UHGV virus genome: UHGV-0103738 | Length of the DNA stretch: 24,037 nt | Strand: one strand, 5' to 3' | DNA from: a virus | In this document: positions 1-17,500 of the stretch, piece by piece | How positions within the stretch are numbered: the stretch's first letter is position 1 | Layout: each line of letters opens with the position of its first letter | Translations under genes and position numbers: made by a program | The notes under the pieces: model-generated | Told to the model about the DNA's origin: nothing | The model's input: the letters and a program-made list of their open reading frames with translations, nothing else | The model's database searches: none

Positions 1-1032
1 ATGGGCGGTGAGTGCTTCATTGTTTTAACCAAAGAAAACAATGAGTTAAATGTTTCTATCCTGTCTGCTGATAAGTGCGACTGGACGCTCAACCGTGAAG
101 TAAGCAAAGAACGTGCGATATATCAAGGTGTGGAGTATGACGTGAACACAATGCGCCCTGTTGCATTTTGGTTTCGTAAAATCAACCTACTGACTCAGAC
201 TTACACAGGTGATAACTATCGCGTAGATGCTTCGCAAGTATGCCATTATTATCAACCACTTGCGGCTGAATCTCTGCGTGGCGTGACTGACTTCCTGCCA
301 GTGATTAAGGATATCGCACATCAAGACGCATTCCGCGAAGCTGTACTGGTCCAGAAACGAATTTCAGCTAGTAGCATGGCGTTCATCGAGCGTCCGAAAG
401 ATTCTGGTGACGATTTTGATACTGGTGAAGATGATGAACAATATCAAGCGCCGGAAGTTATTCACGATTTCGCGCCGGGTACTATTCAGGAATTGCCGGA
501 AGGGGCAACGATCAAGAGTATTCAATCCACGCAAAGCGGCGATGATTTCAATTCATTTAACGCTGGTATGTTCACTAGCATAGCAATGGGTCTTGGCGTG
601 TTCAATCAGGGCTTAACTGGCGATACTAGCCAAATAAATTACAGCGCTGCACGCTACGGCGAATTACTTCAAAGAACGCGCGTTAAAGCACTGCAAAACA
701 AATTAATTGAAACAGTGGTATTGCCAATTTTCGAAGCGTATCTACGCCATTATTCCGCGCGTGGTATTGTTCCGATTCGTATTACGGCAATTCCGCATAT
801 TATCGAGAACACTACTATTATTCGTCCGCGTTTTGAATCCGTCGATCCAATTAAAGACGTAAACGCCGAGATTGCTTTAATTGATAAAGGACTTAAATCA
901 CGTACTGCCGTTATATTAGAACGTGGTGACGATCCTGAAAAAGTATTCTCAGAGATTCAAGCCGAAAAGAGCGCACTAAATATTATCGTTGATGGTGAGG
1001 GTGAAGAAAAAAATTCCCCAGCCGATCCCTAA
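1..1032 (+). CDS. Portal protein, probably C-terminal part (ORF is open to the window start)
   Basis: 343-codon ORF ending 47 nt upstream of the prohead protease/capsid gene, which is the usual portal position. Acidic C-terminal region. No ribosome-binding context can be assessed at position 1, so the true start may lie upstream. Confidence 0.5.
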   Translation: MGGECFIVLTKENNELNVSILSADKCDWTLNREVSKERAIYQGVEYDVNTMRPVAFWFRKINLLTQTYTGDNYRVDASQVCHYYQPLAAESLRGVTDFLPVIKDIAHQDAFREAVLVQKRISASSMAFIERPKDSGDDFDTGEDDEQYQAPEVIHDFAPGTIQELPEGATIKSIQSTQSGDDFNSFNAGMFTSIAMGLGVFNQGLTGDTSQINYSAARYGELLQRTRVKALQNKLIETVVLPIFEAYLRHYSARGIVPIRITAIPHIIENTTIIRPRFESVDPIKDVNAEIALIDKGLKSRTAVILERGDDPEKVFSEIQAEKSALNIIVDGEGEEKNSPADP

Positions 1033-1078: not shown

Positions 1079-3091
1079 ATGCTTAAATTTCGCCGCGAAC
1101 TTAACGGTTACGGTGGAGTTATTAACGAAGGGCATAACGATCAATACGAATTTGAAATTGCTTTCTCCAGTGAACAGCCTTATCAGCGCCAATTCTGGGA
1201 TGAGCAAAATCAAGAAATGGTGGTATTAGATGAAATTCTGGTACATACACCGGAAGCGGTTGATCTGTCTCGTCTGAATAATAACGCTCCGTTGCTGTTT
1301 AATCATAATTTCGATAATCATTTAGGTGTCGTTTGTAACGCTCGAATCGATGCGGATAAAGTAGGCCGTGCGACCGTTAGATTCTCTAAGCATGGCACTT
1401 TGGCTAATGATATTCGTAATAAAGTCATTGAAGGTACGATGGAAAAAATTTCTGTCGGTTATGACATTAAAGAATATCACATCGATTATGCCAAAGGACA
1501 ATTGATTGTTACTAAGTTTGTTCCTTTCGAATTAAGTTTTGTTACGGTCCCGGCGGACGATTCGGTCGGTTTAAATCGCTCTCTAAATACTATCACAGTT
1601 AATTTGGAGGCTAAACGCGATATGACTAAAGAACAAATTGAAGAAATCAAAGAAGAACAAGAATCCGCTCAGGTTGAAGAAACTCCGGTAGAAGAAAATA
1701 AAGAACCGGAAGTTGAAGAAACTCAAGAGCGCCAAGTTGAAGAGAATAAAGAAGATGAAAATCTCGAAGACGGAAAAGACGCTGAACATCCTGAAAGTGT
1801 TGATGATGATAGTTCAACTGTTCGGGAAACAGAAGAAGTAAAAGAAGAACGTGAAGCTGCTCCGGTTGAAGAAGAAAAAACCGAGGAAGTGGCTGAACGT
1901 TCCGAAGAAGACGAATTAGAAATTCGCGAAATTGCACGCGAGTTAAATATTAACGAAGACGATGAAGAATTTAAACGCGCATTGGCAAATAAAGAAATTA
2001 CGCCGGAAGCATTCCGCACTAAGGCACTAAATAACATTACCAATGCTCAACGTAATAACGAACAAATTAATAAGGAACAAATCATGGAAAAAACTTTCGA
2101 TCTTAATAACGTAATCCGCTCCCTGGTAGATGGCGACGTGCTCGGCGCTAACGAAGCTGAATATTCCGCAATGGCTGCTACTGCAACTATGCAGCGTGGT
2201 CGTGCTGCTCGTGGTGGCTCTGTATTCGTTCCGGCTGCTGCTATGCGTGCTGCTGCTGATGGCAACACCAAAGCTAATCTGGTTGCTATCACTGACGAAA
2301 AACTGATGACTGAATCCTACATCGAAATGCTGTTGCCTCAGAGTGTTTTAGGCCGCCTCGGGGTGACTGTTTATAGTGGCTTGACTTCTCCGACCGCTAT
2401 TCCAAAAATGACTAAATCCAGCGTTGACGCTTTCGGATTCGTTGACGAAAATGGCGCTGCCCCCGAGTCACATGCGGAATTTTCGAACGTGAAACTGTCT
2501 CCGAAAACTTTTGCTGGTGGCAACCCGATCAGCCGTCAGTCGCTGAAAACCGTTCCGGGCATCGCTACCCTGATCACCGATCACATTAACAAATCTGTTC
2601 GGATCAAACTGGAACAACTGATTCTGTCTGATAAAGAAAATGCTCGTGGTCCGGCTGGTCTGGTTAAGCAACTGGTAGACGCTAGCCGCGTTACCAAGAA
2701 AGCTGCTTTCTCTTATAAAGACTTCCTGAAAGAAATTGCAGCACTGACTGACGCTGGCGTTCCTGCTCAGGCGATCAAGTTTGCGATGAGCGGTGCAACT
2801 GCTGCTGAACTGGAATCTACCCTGAAAGATAACGGCGTTTCCGGTTATATCATCGAAAACGGCAAACTGGCTGGTTACGAAGTAGTTACTTCTGGCGTTA
2901 TTCCGGCAGACCACATCGTTCTGGGTGACTTCTCCGGTATTACTATCGGTGAGTGGGGCGGTCTGGAACTGGATATGGATCTAACTACATACCGTGATCG
3001 TGGTGCGGTAGTGCCTCGTATCTTTGTAGATTTGGACTACGTTGTAGCACAGCCGGAAGCTCTGAAAGTTCTTCACATCTCCGCTGAATGA
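1079..3091 (+). CDS. Prohead protease / acidic scaffold-like linker / major capsid protein encoded in one reading frame (670 aa)
   Basis: Shine-Dalgarno AAAGGTGA at 1067-1074, ATG at 1079. N-terminal ~170 aa carry HK97-family prohead protease-like motifs (ISVGY, ELSFVTVPADD). A Glu/Lys-rich low-complexity segment spans ~1620-2080. The C-terminal ~335 codons switch to codons typical of highly expressed genes (ctg, cgt, ggt, gct, ttc), as expected for a major capsid protein. Stop is TGA at 3089-3091. Confidence 0.8.
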   Translation: MLKFRRELNGYGGVINEGHNDQYEFEIAFSSEQPYQRQFWDEQNQEMVVLDEILVHTPEAVDLSRLNNNAPLLFNHNFDNHLGVVCNARIDADKVGRATVRFSKHGTLANDIRNKVIEGTMEKISVGYDIKEYHIDYAKGQLIVTKFVPFELSFVTVPADDSVGLNRSLNTITVNLEAKRDMTKEQIEEIKEEQESAQVEETPVEENKEPEVEETQERQVEENKEDENLEDGKDAEHPESVDDDSSTVRETEEVKEEREAAPVEEEKTEEVAERSEEDELEIREIARELNINEDDEEFKRALANKEITPEAFRTKALNNITNAQRNNEQINKEQIMEKTFDLNNVIRSLVDGDVLGANEAEYSAMAATATMQRGRAARGGSVFVPAAAMRAAADGNTKANLVAITDEKLMTESYIEMLLPQSVLGRLGVTVYSGLTSPTAIPKMTKSSVDAFGFVDENGAAPESHAEFSNVKLSPKTFAGGNPISRQSLKTVPGIATLITDHINKSVRIKLEQLILSDKENARGPAGLVKQLVDASRVTKKAAFSYKDFLKEIAALTDAGVPAQAIKFAMSGATAAELESTLKDNGVSGYIIENGKLAGYEVVTSGVIPADHIVLGDFSGITIGEWGGLELDMDLTTYRDRGAVVPRIFVDLDYVVAQPEALKVLHISAE

Positions 3092-3217
3092 ACTCCTGTA
3101 GAACCATCTGAACCTTCCCCCGATTTGGGGGAAGAAAATCTGATTCCTGAACCGGAAGAAGAATCCCAGACGGTTAAGGCGAAAGCCACAGCTAAAAAAC
3201 AGCGTAAAACTAAAGAA
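3092..3217 (+). other. Putative in-frame TGA read-through extension of the capsid protein (42 codons, TAA at 3218-3220)
   Basis: The frame stays open for 42 codons after the TGA, encoding TPVEPSEPSPDLGEENLIPEPEEESQTVKAKATAKKQRKTKE. It ends 5 nt before a terminator hairpin. A parallel arrangement follows the tail tube gene. Confidence 0.45.
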
Positions 3218-3225
3218 TAATAATT

Positions 3226-3252
3226 AGCCCTGCCTAACGGTGGGGCTTTTTT
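3226..3252 (+). terminator. Rho-independent terminator after the capsid gene
   Basis: Stem AGCCCTGCC / GGTGGGGCT (9 bp, two G-U pairs), loop TAAC, followed by a T-run. Near-identical to the hairpin at 9094-9121. Confidence 0.75.
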
Positions 3253-3282
3253 GTATGTAAATACTCCATAAAGGGGGTAACT

Positions 3283-3573
3283 ATGTTCAAATTATCAGAA
3301 TCACAATTAAATCGAATGTTTAAAAGTGCTCCTGTATTTTCGGTGGAAGGTGGTAAATCAATTCGTGCTTATCATGAAATTACCACTACCGACGAACAAG
3401 GGGTAATTACAGAATCAGAATTTCTATTTTGTCGTGAGGGAGACTTAAATCAGGGTGATGTTGTCATTGTAGACGGTGAACGCTTCAAAGTTCAATACGT
3501 TAAGCGCAATGGTGATAATACTTCTGATTGCTTTATTGCTCGTGCAGGGGGTACACATGCTCGCTACCGTTAA
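3283..3573 (+). CDS. Hypothetical virion protein (head-tail connector or head completion candidate, 96 aa)
   Basis: SD AAAGGGGGTAA directly upstream of ATG 3283. Sits between the capsid and tail genes. No recognisable motif. Confidence 0.5.
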   Translation: MFKLSESQLNRMFKSAPVFSVEGGKSIRAYHEITTTDEQGVITESEFLFCREGDLNQGDVVIVDGERFKVQYVKRNGDNTSDCFIARAGGTHARYR

Positions 3574-3577
3574 TAAT

Positions 3578-3979
3578 ATGCCTAGACTGAAAATCAAACG
3601 CGCCTTGCAGGATATTATCGAACAAGATTTAGGTCTGGCTTTAAACGTAGAACAAACTCAGCAAGGCTTTAGTGATGACGTGGTTTGTTGGATTACCGGA
3701 ATGAATGAGACTTACAATAGGGTCCGTGGTGGTAATGCAATGCAAGCTGAATGCGTTATCGAAATGCAGTTGTATTCTCAGAATCATGAAACCAAAATTC
3801 ATGAGGGTATTTGCCAGATAATCCAGATTCAGCCGGATAATCCACGTTTTAAAGATTTGGGCTTCTCTATTTCAGATATCACTCCAGTAGCTTCTAATAC
3901 CGATTATGACGATGATTCTAGTGATGGGGGTATCGTTGGGACACTTAGCCTTAAATTTTCTTATCTAGCGCGTTTTTAA
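3578..3979 (+). CDS. Hypothetical virion protein (133 aa; start chosen at ATG 3578 rather than the track start 3476)
   Basis: Same frame as track ORF 3476..3979. ATG 3578 lies 4 nt after the upstream TAA (TAATAATATG), consistent with translational coupling. The longer version would overlap the upstream gene by ~100 nt. Confidence 0.45.
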   Translation: MPRLKIKRALQDIIEQDLGLALNVEQTQQGFSDDVVCWITGMNETYNRVRGGNAMQAECVIEMQLYSQNHETKIHEGICQIIQIQPDNPRFKDLGFSISDITPVASNTDYDDDSSDGGIVGTLSLKFSYLARF

Positions 3980-3988
3980 GGGGTAATA

Positions 3989-4822
3989 ATGAATATTACA
4001 CAAGATAACTTAGATATTTTCACGGGGTCACATGTTGAAGTGTCGATCTCTAACCAGATAGACAATCAGGTCGACTTTTTCGATCCTAGCTTTAGTTCCA
4101 TCGAGAACGTTGCAGCATTTCCTACGCTAACCGAATCCACAGAGATAGAAACTCTGGAAGAGTACGATCAGGACGCTACGGGGAAACTTGCTGGTTATCG
4201 TAGACTGGAACCGACAACACTCACGTTAAACCGTGTTCTGGATGACGAACATCAAGCAATGTTGATGAAAGCGGTAGAGGATAAAACACCTTTACGCTTC
4301 CGTATGTTCTATGTTGTGAACTCTGGCTATAGTGCTGCTAACACTGGTTACTATGTCATCTATGATGCTTACGTCACATCACACAAAACCCGTGGTAGTG
4401 ATAACAAAGCTGTAACACTGGAATTTAAACTTGAACCAGATGGCGGGATTTTGGATCGCGGTATTGCAACGGAGGGTCGTCTTCTCCGTCGCGGGGATTA
4501 TGGCGTAGGTGCAGGTGTACATCCATTCACAGGTCCGATTGATAGTGATGCTTTAGCCGGAAACCGTTTCGTAACTTACAAGGGAACTGCTAGCGGTAAT
4601 CCATATTCAGCCGACACATCATTAATTCACCTTCAAGCTAATGAGCATGGCGCATGGCAATTAACCTGTAATACTTCTGGCGCACCACGTTTACGCGTCC
4701 GAAATATTCAGGAAAACGGTCGCTCTGAATGGATCAAGGTATATTCCACCAATGAGAAACCGACACCTAGCGAAATTGGCGCAGTGGCTAAGACTGACCG
4801 GATCGATTTCGGCGAATACTAA
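3989..4822 (+). CDS. Tail-tube-like paralogue with a C-terminal domain carrying a tail-fibre motif (277 aa)
   Basis: SD AAGGGGTAA. N-terminal ~150 aa align by eye with the 157-aa tail tube protein (DIFTG..., AAFPTLTESTEIETLEEY vs AGFPETGIERGTVEVKSF, LRFRMFYVV vs IQIKVEYYV). The C-terminus has KVYSTNEKPTPSEIGAVAKTD, matching KMYHEGDKPTPGEIGAYTKAE in the fibre gene. Confidence 0.6.
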   Translation: MNITQDNLDIFTGSHVEVSISNQIDNQVDFFDPSFSSIENVAAFPTLTESTEIETLEEYDQDATGKLAGYRRLEPTTLTLNRVLDDEHQAMLMKAVEDKTPLRFRMFYVVNSGYSAANTGYYVIYDAYVTSHKTRGSDNKAVTLEFKLEPDGGILDRGIATEGRLLRRGDYGVGAGVHPFTGPIDSDALAGNRFVTYKGTASGNPYSADTSLIHLQANEHGAWQLTCNTSGAPRLRVRNIQENGRSEWIKVYSTNEKPTPSEIGAVAKTDRIDFGEY

Positions 4823-4854
4823 GGATTCTCCTACCTAAATAAAACATGAACGCT

Positions 4855-4885
4855 GGGAGGTTAACGCCTCCCTTATTCCTGTTTT
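4855..4885 (+). terminator. Terminator-like hairpin after the tube-like paralogue
   Basis: Stem GGGAGG / CCTCCC with loop TTAACG, followed by a T-rich tract (TTATTCCTGTTTTA). Confidence 0.4.
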
Positions 4886-4901
4886 ATAGTGAGGTGATTC
4901 G

Positions 4902-7900
4902 ATGCAGTCGATCCAATTTAAACGCACACAAACGGCTGGTAAAAAACCAACGCCGGAACAATTATCACAGGGCGAGATCGCCTTACAACTGGCGGACCAT
5001 GTGATTTACACCAAAGATAAAAATAATAACGTAGTCCAAATTAGTGTTTCTCCAGAAAAACACGCTGAACTGAATACGAAAGTAGACACCAACAAGGTCA
5101 ACACAGATAAAGTCATTTCAGCAAATAAAACCGAAGCCGCTAATAATCTGGCTACGGCTAAAGCTGAACTTAATCAGACTATCACTTCTACCCGTGATAC
5201 TCTCAATGCTTCAATCACTGCTGGCGATACCGCAGCCAACAAGCGAATTGATGCTTTGACTACCACAGTAGGTAACAATAAAACCGAAGCGGCTAACGCT
5301 CTGGCGGCTGCTAAGACTGAACTGAATCAGACTATTACTTCAACCCGCGATACTATCAACGCGACAATTAACAAGAACAAGACAGATATTAATGCGCGAG
5401 TTGATCAGACGAATACCAACGTTACCAACTTAACGAATACTGTCGCAGCAAATAAATCAGCAATAGAAAAGACGGTAGCGGATAATAAGAAAGATGCGGA
5501 CACGAAGATCACCAATCTTACTAGTACGGTCTCTGCGAATAAGACAGCCATTGAAAGAACTGTTGCAAATAACAAGGCCAGTGCCGATGCCGCAATTGCC
5601 GCAGCTAACCAGCGAATTGATTCTATTGAAGGTAGTGCCGATGCTGCTTACATCAAGAAGAATACCAATACTAAGCATGGTGGGTATCTGTTAAGCAAGA
5701 CAGCTAACTATTTGGAAGACCAGACAGCGAGAGATCTTAACTACTTTGGTGCTTTCCGTACCAATGGTCAAGATGGACTCATGGATCTAACTCTTAATGT
5801 TCCTCATTCTGCCGGTAAAGCGCACGGTCGCGGATTTACTTTCCGTTATGCGTCTGGTGGATCTCGTGTTGAAACCTATGGTTTTGATAGAGAAGGACAG
5901 AAGAACTTTAGCTATAAGATGTATCACGAAGGTGATAAGCCGACTCCTGGCGAGATTGGCGCATACACCAAAGCCGAAGTTGATAAGATGTTTGTTAAAA
6001 ACGTCGTTATGTCTGTTCCCAATTCTAGCGAAAACGTATCTGCATATTTCAAATTGGCAACCGCAACAATTCCACAAAACGGGCGTAGTGTGTTTTTCCG
6101 TATTCATGGTGGTAATGGTTACAACGTTACGGCATATGATCAGGTTGACGTAGTAGAAATTCTTCTGCGTAGTGGTAACGATAGACCTAAAGGTCTTAAC
6201 GTAATTGCATACCGTAGAAATACAAACAAAGATTTTGAGGTATTTGCTGTCAATACTTCCGGTGATAACTATGATATCTACGTGAAATATCAGCGTTATA
6301 CCGATAACGTTATTGTCGAATATGGGAAATCTGTTTATGTAAGTTTGACGGTTTATGATACGCCGGAAGCCACGTTAATTAAACCTTCCGTTGGTGTTAT
6401 CGGTGGTCGCAACGTAACTCTTTTTAATACTGAAAATAAACGTGGTGTGTTAAGTTTTGATGATAACACACAAAACAGCTATGACATTGTTCACTTGAGT
6501 AACGATAAAGGTACTGGACGGAAATATATTCGTAAATTCCGTAGCAACTATAACGAAATGGTTTGGCATGAAACCGTTCAGGGTGCTGTATATCGTCTTG
6601 CTACCGGTGCTACAGATTCTACAGAAGTTATTAGAATTGATTCTAATAGTGCAATACCGGGTAATTATAAAGGATATGTAATTACTGGTAAAATGGAATT
6701 GCACGGTAGTGGTAATGCGATGACTTTACATCGCCAGACTGGTCAAGCTGCATATATGGCGTGGTGGGATCGTCGTGATGGTAAAAACCAACGTAGTGGT
6801 TATATCGGTCATGCGGATGGTACTAGTGATGGTTTTGTGTGGCGTAATGATGTTGGTGCTAACTCATTTGATTTGGAAGGTAGTGGACAAGTAAATTTGA
6901 CTACAGGAAAAACAAAAATTGTATATACCAATGGTCAATATTATTCCGCTAACGCTGATGCATTCCGTATGATTTACGGTAAGTATGGTGCATTCTGGCG
7001 AAATGATGGTGGTAAAGTTTATCTGTTGTCTACTGCCGAAAATGATAGATTTGGTGGTTGGAACGGAAACCGACCATTCATTTACGATTTGACTAACGGT
7101 AAAGTTACTTTAGGTGGTGATGGTAACGAAGGCGCATTAGTTCTCGAAAGAGATAGCCGTGCTGCTCGATTTGCTGGCGATACATATATCGAGAAAGGGT
7201 TTTTAACCTTCTCTGCTGGGAGAAGCGGATCTCGTGATTATATTCGATTTAATCATTGGGGTGATAGTAATAATGCCCGTGATAACGTTTTGTACCTAGA
7301 AGATAGTCAAGGTAGACATTTTAGCACAGAGCGTGCGATGGGTACTGGTGCTCTTAAAGCAAACTTCTTAGGCGATCTTGAAGTTGGTGGTAAGTTTACT
7401 TGGGGTAAAAATACAGCTACATCCAGCTTTAATATTCGTGCTTGGGGTAACGATAGTCGTAAACAAGTATTAGAATGTGGTGATGAAAGTGGTTGGCATT
7501 GGTATACCCAACGTCCGGGCGGTCCGGGTACTACGGCAATTGAGTTTGCCATCAACGGTACTGTTAAGCCTCAAGCAATTCACACTGGCGGTAATATCAC
7601 GCTTAACGGTGCTGATATTGAATTTCGTCGCACTGGTAATAAGCATATCTGGTTTAGAGATCCAACTGGATTAGAACTAGGTTTGATGTATTCTGATGAT
7701 GCTGGTGTTATTCGCTTCCGTGGTCAGAAACAAGCCCAGACGTGGAAACTTGCGGATAAGATGATTCATCTTGAATCTGGTAGCGTCGGCGGATCTGATA
7801 AAGGTTTGATTCGTGGTAACGTTTCTGGTGGTAGCTGGTCTAGTTGGCGCGATCGTGCATCCGGCTTGCAAGTTGATTGCCCTCAATCAACCGATTCCGC

Positions 7901-8432
7901 TCATAACATCTGGAAAGCTACTCATTGGGGTAAATATCACATTGCAGCAATGGGTGTACACGTTCCTAGCGGTACTATCGGTAACGCTCTTGTTCGTCTG
8001 CATGTTAACGATACTAACTTTGACTTTAACGCTGCTGGTGACTTTACCGCAGGTCGTAACGGTAGCTTTAACGATGTTTACATTCGCTCTGACTCCCGTT
8101 TGAAGATTAACAAGGAAGAATTACAGGACGGTGCATTAGAGAAAGTAAACTCACTGAAAGTCTACACCTACGATAAAGTTAAATCTCTTTCCGATGACAC
8201 GGTGATTAAACGCGAAGTAGGTATTATTGCTCAGGATCTGGAAAAAGTATTGCCGGAAGCAGTAGGTATTCAATCCACCGAAGATCCAGAAAATCCAGAA
8301 GCAATCAAGACTATTTCTAACTCTGCTGTCAATGCTTTAATCATCAAGGCTATGCAGGAAATGGACGCCAAATATAAAGCACAGATCGAAGCATTACAGA
8401 AAGAAATTGCCGAACTGAAAGCAACTAAATAA
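4902..8432 (+). CDS. Side (L-shaped type) tail fibre with a C-terminal intramolecular chaperone / self-cleaving domain (1176 aa)
   Basis: SD GAGGTGA. N-terminal fibre-type motifs, a repeat-rich N/T/A shaft with 51-aa repeats, and a long Gly-rich beta region. The C-terminal ~114 aa begin RSDSRLKINKEE and end in a coiled coil, as in peptidase S74-type chaperone domains of phage fibres and endosialidases (Ser/Lys spacing S1063/K1068). Confidence 0.8.
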   Translation: MQSIQFKRTQTAGKKPTPEQLSQGEIALQLADHVIYTKDKNNNVVQISVSPEKHAELNTKVDTNKVNTDKVISANKTEAANNLATAKAELNQTITSTRDTLNASITAGDTAANKRIDALTTTVGNNKTEAANALAAAKTELNQTITSTRDTINATINKNKTDINARVDQTNTNVTNLTNTVAANKSAIEKTVADNKKDADTKITNLTSTVSANKTAIERTVANNKASADAAIAAANQRIDSIEGSADAAYIKKNTNTKHGGYLLSKTANYLEDQTARDLNYFGAFRTNGQDGLMDLTLNVPHSAGKAHGRGFTFRYASGGSRVETYGFDREGQKNFSYKMYHEGDKPTPGEIGAYTKAEVDKMFVKNVVMSVPNSSENVSAYFKLATATIPQNGRSVFFRIHGGNGYNVTAYDQVDVVEILLRSGNDRPKGLNVIAYRRNTNKDFEVFAVNTSGDNYDIYVKYQRYTDNVIVEYGKSVYVSLTVYDTPEATLIKPSVGVIGGRNVTLFNTENKRGVLSFDDNTQNSYDIVHLSNDKGTGRKYIRKFRSNYNEMVWHETVQGAVYRLATGATDSTEVIRIDSNSAIPGNYKGYVITGKMELHGSGNAMTLHRQTGQAAYMAWWDRRDGKNQRSGYIGHADGTSDGFVWRNDVGANSFDLEGSGQVNLTTGKTKIVYTNGQYYSANADAFRMIYGKYGAFWRNDGGKVYLLSTAENDRFGGWNGNRPFIYDLTNGKVTLGGDGNEGALVLERDSRAARFAGDTYIEKGFLTFSAGRSGSRDYIRFNHWGDSNNARDNVLYLEDSQGRHFSTERAMGTGALKANFLGDLEVGGKFTWGKNTATSSFNIRAWGNDSRKQVLECGDESGWHWYTQRPGGPGTTAIEFAINGTVKPQAIHTGGNITLNGADIEFRRTGNKHIWFRDPTGLELGLMYSDDAGVIRFRGQKQAQTWKLADKMIHLESGSVGGSDKGLIRGNVSGGSWSSWRDRASGLQVDCPQSTDSAHNIWKATHWGKYHIAAMGVHVPSGTIGNALVRLHVNDTNFDFNAAGDFTAGRNGSFNDVYIRSDSRLKINKEELQDGALEKVNSLKVYTYDKVKSLSDDTVIKREVGIIAQDLEKVLPEAVGIQSTEDPENPEAIKTISNSAVNALIIKAMQEMDAKYKAQIEALQKEIAELKATK
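5124..5429 (+). repeat. Two tandem 153-nt (51-codon) repeat units inside the fibre shaft
   Basis: AATAAAACCGAAGC(C/G)GCTAA...CTGAA(C/T)T(T/G)AATCAGACTAT(C/T)ACTTC recurs at 5124 and 5277. Protein units are NKTEAANNLATAKAELNQTITSTRDT... and NKTEAANALAAAKTELNQTITSTRDT... Confidence 0.7.
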
Positions 8433-8488
8433 TAAAAGTCGGGGGACTAGTTCCCCCGTAATAACAATTTTAATTAAGGGGTAATTCT

Positions 8489-8962
8489 ATGTCTCAGCAA
8501 TTCAAAGATATTTTTACTGGTGGTCTGGTAAGTCTGTTCTATCACGCCGATACCACTAACACCGACCTTGCCGATGAAGCATACGAAGAAATTAAAGAGT
8601 GTGCTGGTTTTCCTGAAACTGGTATCGAGCGCGGTACTGTAGAAGTTAAATCCTTCTCTTCTCAGTATAACCGTAAACTGGTAGGTAAACTGAACGTTCC
8701 TGATCTGACTCTGACCGTTAACTACATTCCTGGTGATGCGGTACATGAGAAGCTCATAAAGGCTGCCGAAGACGGTACGCGTATTCAAATCAAAGTTGAA
8801 TACTATGTTGACGCCGGAAAACAGACTGGTATTCGCACTGCTTTCAACGGCTTTATTTCTAAAGTTGCTATGAACGGTGGCGATGAAGAAGTGGTAACGA
8901 AAGAGTTTACCTTTGCTGTTGATGGTGCTCCGCTGAAACAGCAAATCTTCACTGCCGGATGA
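8489..8962 (+). CDS. Major tail tube protein (157 aa)
   Basis: SD AAGGGGTAA. Strongly biased highly-expressed codon usage. Lies upstream of the chaperone and tape-measure genes and is followed by a strong terminator. Stop is TGA at 8960-8962. Confidence 0.7.
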   Translation: MSQQFKDIFTGGLVSLFYHADTTNTDLADEAYEEIKECAGFPETGIERGTVEVKSFSSQYNRKLVGKLNVPDLTLTVNYIPGDAVHEKLIKAAEDGTRIQIKVEYYVDAGKQTGIRTAFNGFISKVAMNGGDEEVVTKEFTFAVDGAPLKQQIFTAG

Positions 8963-9085
8963 ACTAACGAAGAACTTCCTTTACCAGAACCGGAACCACT
9001 GCCGGAACATGAAGCGGTGGTGATTCCAGAAGTAGAAGAAGTTACGGCGAAAGCCACAGCAAAACGAGGCCGCAAGGCTAAGAAT
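8963..9085 (+). other. Putative in-frame TGA read-through extension of the tail tube protein (41 codons, TAA at 9086-9088)
   Basis: Open in frame after the TGA, encoding TNEELPLPEPEPLPEHEAVVIPEVEEVTAKATAKRGRKAKN. Same TGA-ACT context and same Pro/Glu-linker plus basic-tail architecture as the capsid extension. Ends 5 nt before the terminator. Confidence 0.45.
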
Positions 9086-9093
9086 TAATTTTA

Positions 9094-9121
9094 AGCCCTG
9101 CCTTAATGGTGGGGCTTTTTT
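9094..9121 (+). terminator. Rho-independent terminator after the tail tube gene
   Basis: Stem AGCCCTGCC / GGTGGGGCT, loop TTAAT, then a T-run. Same stem as the terminator at 3226-3252. Confidence 0.75.
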
Positions 9122-14540: not shown

Positions 14541-17500
14541 TGGGATTTGAAATATTGGTAGGCGCGGTTATTGCTGGTGCGTCTGCTGGGATGGCTGCTG
14601 CTGCAACATTTTCTGTTATGACCGCAGTCGCTATCGGTATGGCTGCTGGTGCAATGACCTTGATCGCTTCCACTGTAGGCGCACCAAAAACACCGAAAGT
14701 ACAAAGCCCAGATAATGCGGTGACACTAGGAACATCAAACGATCCGAAGACAGTATTACCCGTTCTTTTCGGTACTACCCGCACGGGTGCAATCTGCGTT
14801 TACAAAGCAATTTCTAAGCAAGAAAACAATAAGTTAGTGCAAATCTTCGCAATTGCAGAGGGTGAAATCGACCATTACAAAGCACTATTCATCGATAACA
14901 AAAATGTTCTTGTTGGTAAGAACATGACGATCCGTGATGGTGTACTGGACAAAGGCAACATTAAAGAAGAATACCGGAAAGTTTTAGAGGTTGAGTTCCG
15001 CACTGGTAAGAATCCTAACACCGCTTTGTCACTGGCAAAACGTCACTTAGGGTCAGACTGGAACGACAACTACAAAGGCAATGGTATTGCGACCATGTGT
15101 ATTGTGTTGCGTCGTGATGACAAATCTCTTGCTGCTGGTGTTGATATTCTCCAACCAAATAGCCAGGTAGCGGTAGACGTTTGCGGGTTAAAGATTCGTA
15201 ACCTTGAAACCAATGCTATTGAGGCTAGCACTAACGGCGTGGACCAGATTTTCCATTATCTGACAAATACAAAATATGGTCTTAGTGTACCAATTGAAAA
15301 CATCAACGTTGATTCATTCCTGAAAGTACGTAAGCAAGTACGCCAGATGGATTTGCATTCAAACGGTGCATGTGATCCGAACGCCAGCTTTAAAGAGAAC
15401 TTGACTAGCCTTATGCAGACTTTCGGCGGGGTGATGTTCGAATCCTTTGGACGTATTACGCTGAAACTGGATGCTCCTGATATTGTTAAGCATACCTTCA
15501 ATGAAGACAATATCATGATGGGTAAGGTATCACTGAAAACAGGTGGCACTAACGGTTATTTCAATACCATTAACGCGATGTATCAAGAACCATCAATCGA
15601 CTATTCAGAGCAAATGCTACGTTATCCGGCTGATGCTGAAAACGATGCTACTATTCGTCAAGATGGTCGAATTATCGCTAAAGATATTGAATATCGTTTT
15701 GTTAAGTCTAAAGCCCAGATTGATAAACTTGCGAGTATTGAGCGAAATAAATCTCGTATCACTCAGGTTATCAGCTTTATGACTACTGACGCATTCACTG
15801 CCGAAGTTTGGGACGTTATCAGCGTAACCTATGATGAATTGAAGCTGAATAATTCCTTATGGCGTATTACTGCAATTGATCGCTCGATTGATTCTGGTAT
15901 TGCTGGGATGATGACTATCACCGCTACAGAATATAATTCTCAGGTTTATACTGACCTGAACTATGCGGCTAACCCAGATAACCGACCAAGTGGTTTACCG
16001 GATTCAATGACAGTACAGAAGCCTACTAATTTCAGAATTAAGGCAACTGGCGAGACGATTTACGGTAAAAACGTTACTTTGACATGGGATGCACCAGAAG
16101 ATTTTAACCGCTACGGCTTCCAGATTGATTACCGTGTAAGCGGATCACCTAACTGGATTAAGTTGGGACAGACTTCACAGCAAATTTTCAGTGTCAATGC
16201 ACTGGCAAAAGATCGTTCCTACGATTACCGAGTTTGTGCTTTCGGTATCATCGCGAGATCCGATTGGGTAGAACTGATTAACCAGAATCCTACTGTTACC
16301 TATGAATTGCCGACTCCGGTTATTCGAATCAAAAATCAGGGTAGCACGCCAGGAACTTTCGAAGGTAATGATCTGATTATCGAATGGGAAAATCAGCAAC
16401 AATTAGATGTTGAGATCAACGGTGAAACTAACAAGTTTAGTGACCTGTTTGAAGCATACATTATCAAGGTGACTAACAAGGCTGGTAAGTCTATTCAGTA
16501 CCGTACCCGCGATCCTGAATCATGGACTTATACGCTTGATATGAACCAGTTTAACGGCCTTTCGCGTCAACTTACGGTAGAAGTATCAGCTAAGGGCTAT
16601 AACAACTCAGAGAGCGCCCCAGCGCGTTTAGTGGCTATCAACCCACAACATAAGCCAATGAAAGGTTTTAGTGCGCGTGGTGGCTTTAATACTGCGTTTG
16701 TTAGCTGGGCGGATGACGTAGAACATGACTATGCAGGGTCAATCATCCAGTATGCAACCGACAACACTTTCTCAGATGCAAGGGCAGTAAGTACGAATAG
16801 TGTTAGCCATACTTCCTTTGATATTGCTGACGGTGATTATTATATCCGTGGTGCTCACTACGATATTTTCGGTATGGATGATGCTGTTTGGTCTGAACCG
16901 TATTTCATGCAAATGAAGTCTACGATTAGTTGGGACGATCAGGACAAAGAAGCACTGGAAGACCTGATCGGTTTACAAGATCGCTTAGATGAAACTATCG
17001 CGGATGCTATTAAGCAAGCTGGCGCTAATGCCGATGCTAAAATTGATGCAATGCATAAGCAAATCACTACCGAGACGGGTAAAACTGTTCAAGCCTCAGC
17101 CGATACCTTAAAGAGTCTGATTGCTTCTGGTGATAAGGCAAGTTCAACTAAGATTGATCAGGTTAAAGCTGAACTGAAAGGCGATATCACCAAAGAAGTT
17201 AGCGCCTCCGCTACAACCCTGAAACAAGCAATTGCAACCAGTGAGGCAGCAAGCGCAAGTAAGATTGATCAAGTTCGGGTAGAAATGGATGGCAAGATTG
17301 CTGGTGTGAATCAGGAAGCAGATGTAAAAATCGATGCTTTGAAAGGAACCATTAACAGCAAATACAATCTGGCGGTTAATGCAGATGGTCGCGTGGCTGG
17401 TATTCATATGAGCGCAACCAATGATCCGGCAGAACCGACAAGAATCATCTTTACGGCTGATAAAATCGCGGTAGCTCCACAGAATGGATCGGGGGTATGT

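Follow-up and report, generated by a model that had tools for sequence, protein, structure and literature searches.

We analyzed a stretch of 24,037 nucleotides (nt) from UHGV virus genome UHGV-0103738 (the window), which is the structural module of a temperate siphophage-type Escherichia coli prophage, and concentrated on the gene for ORF277, a 277-amino-acid (aa) protein with an ATG start and the ribosome-binding site AAGGGG. In its N-terminal part ORF277 is a paralog of the major tail tube protein and has the tube fold, and its C terminus is of the type of gp36 of T4-like phages. The product of the neighboring fiber gene is a homolog of gp37, the tail terminator and the distal tail protein have genes of their own, and related prophages either keep the same gene order or carry the tube-like domain and the fiber fused in one protein. 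Below, ORF277 and its counterparts in other prophages are called stubs.

The N-terminal domain of ORF277

ORF277 residues 3 to 163 aligned with the full length (residues 1 to 157) of the 157-aa tube protein of the same window (BLASTP, 30% identity, E = 8e-17), and both proteins matched PHROG 158, "major tail protein" (5.8e-9 for ORF277 and 7.5e-22 for the tube protein). An original prediction, made from the DNA letters without database searches, had called the N-terminal half a paralog of the tube protein, and these matches confirm it. The AlphaFold2 (AF2) model of ORF277, built on 26 homologs, showed predicted local distance difference test (pLDDT) values of 76 to 93 in this domain, and AF2 together with Foldseek gave a fold of the tail tube type, a beta-sandwich with one helix and a long hairpin. 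In a Foldseek search of the PDB, the N-domain matched lambda gpV first and then the tubes of 80alpha/SaPI1, NF5, monocin, and Sf11 (E = 1e-8 to 5e-5, probability 1.0), with Hcp and tube proteins of contractile systems among the lower matches; the model thus agrees with lambda gpV and other siphophage tube proteins. Weak matches to Phage_tail_2 appeared in 6 of the 26 homologs, and a distant relative, P0176, exceeded the Pfam cutoff for Phage_TTP_12. Profile searches of solved structures by sequence returned nothing usable for ORF277 or for the 140-aa and 96-aa proteins encoded upstream.

We compared the N-domains of the stubs with the tube proteins of 17 loci in a neighbor-joining tree. The two sets formed clean clades of largely congruent topology, indicating an old duplication followed by codivergence. 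Mean identity was 37.5% among stubs, 51% among tubes, and 23% between stubs and tubes; the lower value among stubs than among tubes indicates that the stub copy evolves faster than the tube protein. Moreover, the position of a major tube gene, directly upstream of the chaperone and tape measure genes, is occupied by the 157-aa gene and not by ORF277. The N-terminal 163 residues of ORF277 are an old duplicate of the major tail tube protein.

A tube-like fold could also belong to a tail terminator or a distal tail protein that had gained an appendage, as both classes share this fold family and the ORF277 gene lies near the head-tail joining genes. Nevertheless, a separate terminator and a separate distal tail protein are encoded in the window, ORF277 finds its best structural matches in true tube proteins and is similar to its own tube protein at the level given above, so that we consider this identity extremely improbable. 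The terminator half of it was rejected on the fold of the 140-aa protein, whose Foldseek matches are the E217 gateway, the NF5 neck, the monocin cap, lambda gpU, T5 p142, and the pyocin collar. For the distal tail protein, a relative showed a weak DTP-pb9 domain match. With both of these roles filled by separate proteins, ORF277 is an additional tube-like component; a neck subunit, as was also suggested, is a possible but unlikely role, the terminator being a separate protein.

The C-terminal module, motif, and tail

An alignment of 26 family members falls into three parts, namely, the tube-like domain, a Gly-rich module with the consensus GDYGVGAG..GNRFVTY..NPF..WQL..PRLRVR..W.KVY..EKPT..EIGAV, and a terminal D.IDFGE(F/Y). 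The C-terminal part is better conserved than the N-domain, and the tail is among the best-conserved portions of ORF277, with D273 invariant and G275 kept in at least 90% of the members. Stubs range in length from 275 to 1,209 aa (there are variants of 342 to 482 aa, and the stub of phage DCP80 has 699 aa) and keep an ID.G.F tail throughout; the longer ones carry extra fiber modules between the Gly-rich module and the tail, each ending in "vY..gnKPT..iGA."

Within the module lies the motif KVYSTNEKPTPSEIGAVAKTD (ORF277 residues 250 to 270), which is identical at 11 of 21 positions to KMYHEGDKPTPGEIGAYTKAE in the fiber (residues 339 to 359, nt 5916 to 5978). The BLASTP alignment around it spans 42 aa (E = 4e-4), and hhalign of the family profile against the fiber aligned the 21-aa stretch alone. 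A six-frame hmmsearch of the window with a C-domain profile found no match other than ORF277. The original prediction, that ORF277 ends in a motif shared with the fiber, was right about the motif and wrong about its position, seven further residues (RIDFGEY) following it; the motif is not of low complexity.

We then searched 1.84 billion cluster representatives with a profile of residues 158 to 270 (E ≤ 1e-3) and obtained 241 matches. In about 20 of these the module begins at residue 155 to 170, behind a tube-like domain. Most of the other matches listed are proteins of 600 to 2,500 aa in which the module or its C-terminal 70 aa is internal and often repeated, and three of the five long module-bearing proteins that we scanned contain gp37-type, S74, or Collar fiber domains. 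The matches examined were all either stub homologs or long fiber-like proteins. Because the module recurs inside long fibers, the predicted fiber signature is real; the 21-aa motif, however, is a generic boundary of T4-type fiber modules, and the decisive mark is the combination of a gp36-type tail with a gp37-type N terminus on the next gene product.

These data also bear on whether ORF277 might be a tube gene duplicate in decay, whose C terminus has no meaning and resembles a fiber by chance or low complexity. The motif is short (21 aa) and its pairwise E value is just 4e-4, as such an explanation would have it, but the open reading frame (ORF) is intact and conserved in 86 clusters, the region is found in 54 of 5,426 complete E. 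coli genomes (about 1%), the C-terminal part is the more conserved one, and the module is present in other fiber proteins. We therefore give this explanation next to no weight.

The gp36-gp37 joint

ORF277 residues 180 to 277 aligned end to end with residues 396 to 496 of RB49p250, with both C termini in register (..YHEGNKPTPADVGAVPLNAVIDFGTF versus ..VYSTNEKPTPSEIGAVAKTDRIDFGEY; 31% identity, E = 9e-6); the RB49p250 gene sits between gp35 and gp37 of phage RB49. A Klebsiella family member, P0084, showed stronger similarity: its C-terminal part is 52 to 54% identical (E about 1e-33) to the annotated gp36 of Klebsiella T4-like phages ("hinge connector of long tail fiber protein distal connector"), it matched 1,061 phage records, mostly T4-like, and it reached E = 1e-15 against T4 gp36. 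The gp36 proteins examined end in ..SVQDFGYY (T4), IDFGTF (RB49), and ..GVTIDFGTY (Klebsiella phage K65), so that a DFG-x-aromatic end is present in three of three. ORF277 shares with gp36 the C-terminal 100 or so aa, the ..KPT..(I/V)GA.. motif, and this terminal tail, and longer members of its family hold most of gp36. It differs in having a tail tube domain in place of the N-terminal part by which gp36 joins gp35 and gp34, and in its host, a temperate siphophage-type prophage rather than a contractile myophage. The window contains no separate gp34 or gp35 gene, which, with the tube-domain N terminus, indicates that ORF277 is a chimera and not a gp36 ortholog.

The fiber encoded next to ORF277 starts with MQSIQFKRTQTAGKKPTPEQLSQGEIALQLADHVIYTK.., an N terminus of the same type as those of gp37 in T4 and in a Klebsiella T4-like phage, and like the partner of gp36 it thus follows its connector gene with an N terminus of the gp36-binding type. 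The N-terminal region of T4 gp37 is where the gp36 trimer attaches (PMC3004832). Given the gp36-type tail and the gp37-type N terminus, the stub and the fiber reproduce the gp36-gp37 joint, the part facing gp35 and gp34 having been swapped for a tube domain. Farther along, fiber residues 262 to 1176 are 76% identical over 912 aa to residues 71 to 979 of RB49 gp37, the DNA identity of the fiber gene to RB49-like phages is about 80%, and the NKTEAAN-type repeat insert is not present in RB49 gp37. The fiber is a mosaic, and it looks as if T4-like phages and a temperate prophage had exchanged it rather recently. The two genes are adjacent, as originally predicted, although not directly so: a gap of 79 nt with a weak hairpin separates them, and in distant relatives this gap measures 9 to 53 nt.

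A gp38-like adhesin is also encoded in the window, its gene being parted from the fiber gene by the tube gene and a strong terminator-like hairpin. In a Klebsiella relative (L009) the gp38-like gene (14635 to 15162) directly follows the fiber gene. RB49 has no gp38 annotated after gp37, and the fiber of the window has its own S74 chaperone. The gp38-like protein is probably the adhesin at the tip of this fiber.

Comparison across related prophages

The ORF277 family comprises 86 cluster representatives, none of which has a Pfam domain or a functional name; the database names are only "hypothetical" or "phage tail protein." Its hosts are Enterobacterales carrying prophages (E. coli, Shigella, Salmonella, Providencia, Edwardsiella, Proteus, Enterobacter, and Klebsiella). 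We compared 65 IMG/VR loci and several genome loci. The order head closure, terminator, stub, fiber(s), and tube was found in every locus with enough sequence, and a gp37-type fiber gene lay next to the stub gene in all relatives compared. Furthermore, the stub tail covaries in discrete types with the N terminus of the next gene product: DRIDFGEY occurs with MQSIQFKRT, D(T/V)IDLGTF with MAKIKFKRT, DVIDLGYL with MAKIQMRRTKT, E.LDAG.F with MANNKVKHYRT, ELISAGKF with MVNNKVQHYYT, and VDFGYF with ..EIKFKRSK, the last pair resembling DFGYY with IQFKRSK in T4.

Five mosaic E. coli prophages (L031, L034, L036, L039, and L044) were compared with positions 4469 to 9100 of the window. Outside the exchanged part they are about 85 to 100% identical to the window, with at least 85% in the portal, capsid, head-closure protein, terminator, stub N-domain, chaperones, tape measure, distal tail protein, and hub, and they carry a swapped cassette consisting of the stub C-terminal part (72 to 74%), the fiber (32 to 46%), and the tube gene (58 to 59%). 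The tube gene was swapped while the terminator, the stub N-domain, and the distal tail protein stayed nearly identical. That one cassette holds both the stub C-terminal part and the fiber indicates that the stub tail and the fiber N terminus travel together. The mosaic prophages are without a gp38-like gene, and most have three ORFs of about 100 aa after the fiber instead.

In a sister group of 22 IMG/VR loci, with hosts that include Rouxiella, Pseudescherichia, and Atlantibacter, a single protein of 560 to 1,144 aa is encoded between the terminator and tube genes, and it is often the sole fiber gene at that slot. It starts with a tube-like domain (one of these exceeds the Pfam cutoff for Phage_TTP_12) and a GDFG(V/L)G module. 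Four of these proteins that we examined end in a Peptidase_S74 intramolecular chaperone, a hallmark of trimeric fibers, and another has Phage_tail_C_2 at its C-terminal end. In the sister prophages, then, the tube-like domain is the N-terminal, virion-proximal domain of the fiber itself, and the clade of the window has the same design split at the gp36-gp37 joint. These fused proteins are the strongest support for an anchoring role of the stub.

They also count against a different role, in which ORF277 would be a minor tube subunit, built into the whole tail together with the 157-aa protein, and would do no more than decorate it with short fiber-like knobs or many fibers, in the manner of SPP1 gp17.1* or the C-terminal immunoglobulin-like (Ig) domain of lambda gpV. 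Decorations of tubes begin at the C terminus of the tube domain, where the extension of ORF277 begins too; the tube protein of one relative (L002) has a 251-aa C-terminal extension of its own; and any copy number of the stub would fit the present data. Yet the extension is neither an Ig nor a fibronectin type III (FN3) domain but a connector of the gp36 type with its docking tail conserved, and a gp37-type fiber gene always comes next. A whole S74-capped fiber of up to 1,144 aa, as in the sister prophages, is implausible on every ring of a tail, and the divergence of the stub N-domains from the tubes, along with their faster evolution, is what a specialized ring would be expected to show. We thus find decoration improbable. 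Of the two roles that the original prediction had offered for a specialized subunit, anchoring through the tube is upheld by the gp36-type end, the gp37 neighbor, and the fused sister proteins, whereas decoration is disfavored.

One sublineage (L063, L106, L108, L110, and L112, and also L005, L009, L053, L058, and L066 to L069) has its tail genes in a rearranged order: the tube gene is followed at once by those for DUF6950 and the tip protein, a chaperone G homolog comes after the latter, and the genes of the distal tail protein and the hub are placed at the opposite end of the contig (by the integrase in L112). We rejected the idea of a short-tailed lineage devoid of a tape measure; the genes for chaperone G, the distal tail protein, and the hub have been relocated, which makes this a rearrangement and not a loss.

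Setting of the locus

Features of the window are listed in Table 1. Only two proteins, the 96-aa head-closure-like protein and the 140-aa terminator, are encoded between the capsid gene and ORF277, and we saw no recognizable adaptor (gpW or gp6 type) or tail-completion gene in positions 3092 to 3979. The 140-aa gene starts at the ATG at 3557, overlapping the end of the 96-aa gene, and not at the GTG at 3476 given by the ORF finder.

Table 1. Genes and features of the window, with the parts of ORF277 and of the fiber
Feature	Position (nt)	Strand	Details
Portal gene, 3' end	1-1032		
Protease/major-capsid fusion	1079-3091		phrog_617, 2.7e-92
Head-closure/FII-like protein, 96 aa	3283-3573		
Tail terminator, 140 aa	3557-3979	+	AF2 pLDDT 77; Foldseek E = 4e-6 to 2e-4
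ORF277 (stub)	3989-4822	+	Tail tube paralog fused to gp36-type fiber connector
Tube-like N-domain of ORF277, residues 1-163	3989-4477	+	Ends exactly at the end point of the tube protein
Conserved Gly-rich fiber-shaft module of ORF277, residues 164-270	4478-4798	+	GDYGVGAG..GNRFVTY..NPY..WQL..PRLRVRN..W.KVYSTNEKPTPSEIGAV
21-aa motif within the shaft module, ORF277 residues 250-270	4736-4798	+	
C-terminal tail of ORF277, RIDFGEY	4799-4819	+	gp36-type end; predicted docking peptide for the fiber N terminus
Weak terminator-like hairpin with T-run, between stub and fiber genes	4855-4872	+	
Fiber, 1,176 aa	4902-8432	+	gp37 homolog
N-terminal joint of fiber, gp37 type, residues 1-51	4902-5054	+	37% identity, E = 3e-9 to RB49 gp37 N terminus
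Inserted repeat segment of fiber, residues 52-261 (~210 aa)	5055-5684	+	NKTEAAN-type repeats
gp37 body of fiber, residues 262-1176	5685-8432	+	
S74 chaperone domain of fiber, residues 1063-1121			
Major tail tube protein, 157 aa	8489-8962	+	Canonical position, upstream of chaperone and tape measure genes
gp38-like adhesin, 168 aa	9137-9643	+	Gp38_N, 3.9e-15; phrog_1121 "tail fiber adhesin," 1.7e-34
Two chaperone-like genes, then tape measure (810 aa)			In this order after the gp38-like adhesin
Distal tail protein, 186 aa	12861-13421	+	phrog_1302 "distal tail protein," 2.6e-16
Hub, DUF6950-like protein, tip protein (1,258 aa)			In this order after the distal tail protein

Near-identical terminators, each a hairpin plus T-run (AGCCCTGCC..GGTGGGGCT TTTTT), lie at 3226 to 3247, 3' of the capsid gene, and at 9093 to 9117, 3' of the tube gene. 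Capsid and tube proteins are the two most abundant proteins of a virion, and the two terminators may be partial ones that set expression ratios.

The same prophage is present in E. coli CE0007a (NZ_CP119011, 4.30 to 4.33 Mb; 96% nucleotide identity), inserted in hicB beside a serine recombinase; there, PGAP names ORF277 a "hypothetical protein" and the 157-aa protein a "phage tail tube protein." The sole sequenced phage record with this module is that of Escherichia phage DCP80 (GenBank PQ671644; 141 kb, classed as T4-like Straboviridae), which holds it at its 5' end. Bases 1 to 22000 of that record are a siphophage-type module of this prophage family, with a gpA-type terminase, capsid, the 699-aa stub, fiber, tube, and tape measure, and the record may be a chimeric assembly.

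A proposed fiber anchor

We consider it likely that ORF277 is a dedicated tail subunit that anchors the fiber, as a ring of tube paralogs in line with the tube whose C termini are bundled as gp36-like stubs. The tube-like domains would form a hexameric ring, placed in line because a ring of tube fold could not encircle the tube. Each extension would leave at the C terminus of the tube domain, the outward point at which lambda gpV bears its Ig domain; the extension consists of one T4-type shaft module followed by the gp36-type connector tail (..KPTPSEIGAVAKTDRIDFGEY). By homology with T4, three adjoining extensions would bundle into a trimeric gp36-like stub, giving two stubs, and hence two fibers, per hexamer, and the IDFGEY tails would dock the gp37-type N terminus (MQSIQFKRTQTAGKKPTPEQLSQGEIAL..) of the 1,176-aa fiber. 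The fiber would mature through its own S74 domain, with the gp38-like adhesin as its probable tip. In this way the stub would stand in for the T4 chain gp9-gp34-gp35-gp36, and a distal half-fiber of T-even type would be mounted directly on the tube of a temperate siphophage. In short, the copy of the tube protein probably lets a siphophage plug a fiber borrowed from T4-like phages straight into its tail tube.

Several points weigh against the proposed anchor. Presence of ORF277 in the virion, the ring, and the binding of the fiber go beyond what sequence and a monomer fold provide, and we infer them. Pfam gave zero matches for ORF277, Phage_T4_gp36 (PF03903) included; the similarity of ORF277 to T4 gp36 was not significant (E = 0.5), and the link to gp36 passes through the match at E = 9e-6 to one gp36 equivalent and through the stronger matches of longer relatives. 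The AF2 model is poor for residues 164 to 218 (pLDDT below 50 for 164 to 210), too poor for a fold search. The covariation of stub tails with fiber N termini could reflect mere linkage. The arrangement needs a 6-to-3 symmetry mismatch between hexamer and trimer, which is put forward here by analogy alone. Lastly, the ORF277 gene adjoins the terminator gene and not the baseplate block, unlike the gene for T5 p140, so that gene order lends no support to a distal ring.

As to where the ring would sit, T5 p140 provides the analogy for the place that we favor, the distal end, where the ring would adjoin the distal tail protein. The same anchor could instead form a head-proximal ring under the terminator, with the fibers hanging like whiskers from the neck. 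The invariant order head closure, terminator, stub, fiber, and tube would fit this, gene order in siphophages often mirroring the order in the virion, although a tandem duplication of the tube gene explains the gene order equally well. A proximal ring would furthermore have to sense the end of the tape measure, as the terminator does, a receptor-binding fiber of the gp37/gp38 type would be more useful near the tip, and the precedents, T5 p140 and the lambda StfN collar, are both distal. On balance we think a proximal position unlikely, if less so than decoration along the tail.

The fully specified version of the proposed anchor deserves a more tentative wording than the anchor itself. It would have one ring of the tube made of the tube paralog, its six chains dividing 3 + 3 into two gp36-like stubs that each dock a T-even gp37/gp38 half-fiber, and the joint would be a universal socket by which temperate siphophages and lytic T4-like myophages trade host-range cassettes. 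With an 810-aa tape measure, and scaled from the 31 discs of lambda, the tail would have about 30 tube rings. We regard this combination as possible, somewhat short of an even chance.

Relation to known tail systems

Two known structures make the proposed mechanism plausible. The T5 protein p140, a duplicate of pb6 (the tube protein), makes up a single ring where the tube meets the distal tail protein; around this ring lies the p132 collar, the carrier of the L-shaped fibers (PMC10038345). As with ORF277, this is a second, diverged copy of the tube protein, and its ring lies at the attachment site of the side fibers. In contrast to ORF277, p140 has no extension, holds the fibers by way of the separate collar p132, and is encoded in the baseplate block, whereas ORF277 is continuous with the fiber connector and is encoded between the terminator and tube genes. 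Those who solved the T5 structure pointed out that other siphophages must anchor their fibers differently (PMC10038345). Ur-lambda has a collar of 12 Stf N-domains, from which flexible linkers of about 10 residues lead, in groups of three, to four trimeric fibers (PMC12617516). Here the likeness, on the proposed model, lies in ring-forming N-domains linked three by three to trimeric side fibers and in a fiber body related to T4 gp37. The lambda collar, however, has 12 members, encircles the place at which tube and distal tail protein join, and involves no tube paralog, while the tube-like ring of ORF277 would sit in line and have 6 subunits.

Decorated tubes provide a further comparison. The Ig-like domain of lambda gpV and the extension of SPP1 gp17.1* project outward from the C terminus at the same topological point of the tube domain as in ORF277, but there the carrier is the major tube protein itself or its frameshift variant, and the domains, of Ig or FN3 type, bind nothing specific; ORF277 is a separate paralogous gene that carries a fiber connector. 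In a recent atlas of Klebsiella receptor-binding proteins, gp36-like classes were exclusive to myoviruses. Our literature search found no earlier description of a chimera of a tube paralog and a fiber protein.

The fixing of side fibers to long noncontractile tails is known for few phages, namely, through the T5 collar, the lambda Stf collar, and the lactococcal baseplates. The ORF277 family, fairly common yet annotated as hypothetical everywhere, suggests a simple covalent solution, in which the tube protein was duplicated and the copy carries the fiber. A 277-aa adaptor that offers a defined socket would give phage engineering a compact means of grafting T-even receptor-binding fibers onto other tails. 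In nature, the T-even gp36-gp37 joint would be in use outside the myophages, as a socket across morphotypes, and would offer a concrete route for the observed transfer of a fiber, about 80% identical in nucleotide sequence, between lytic T4-like phages and prophages of E. coli.

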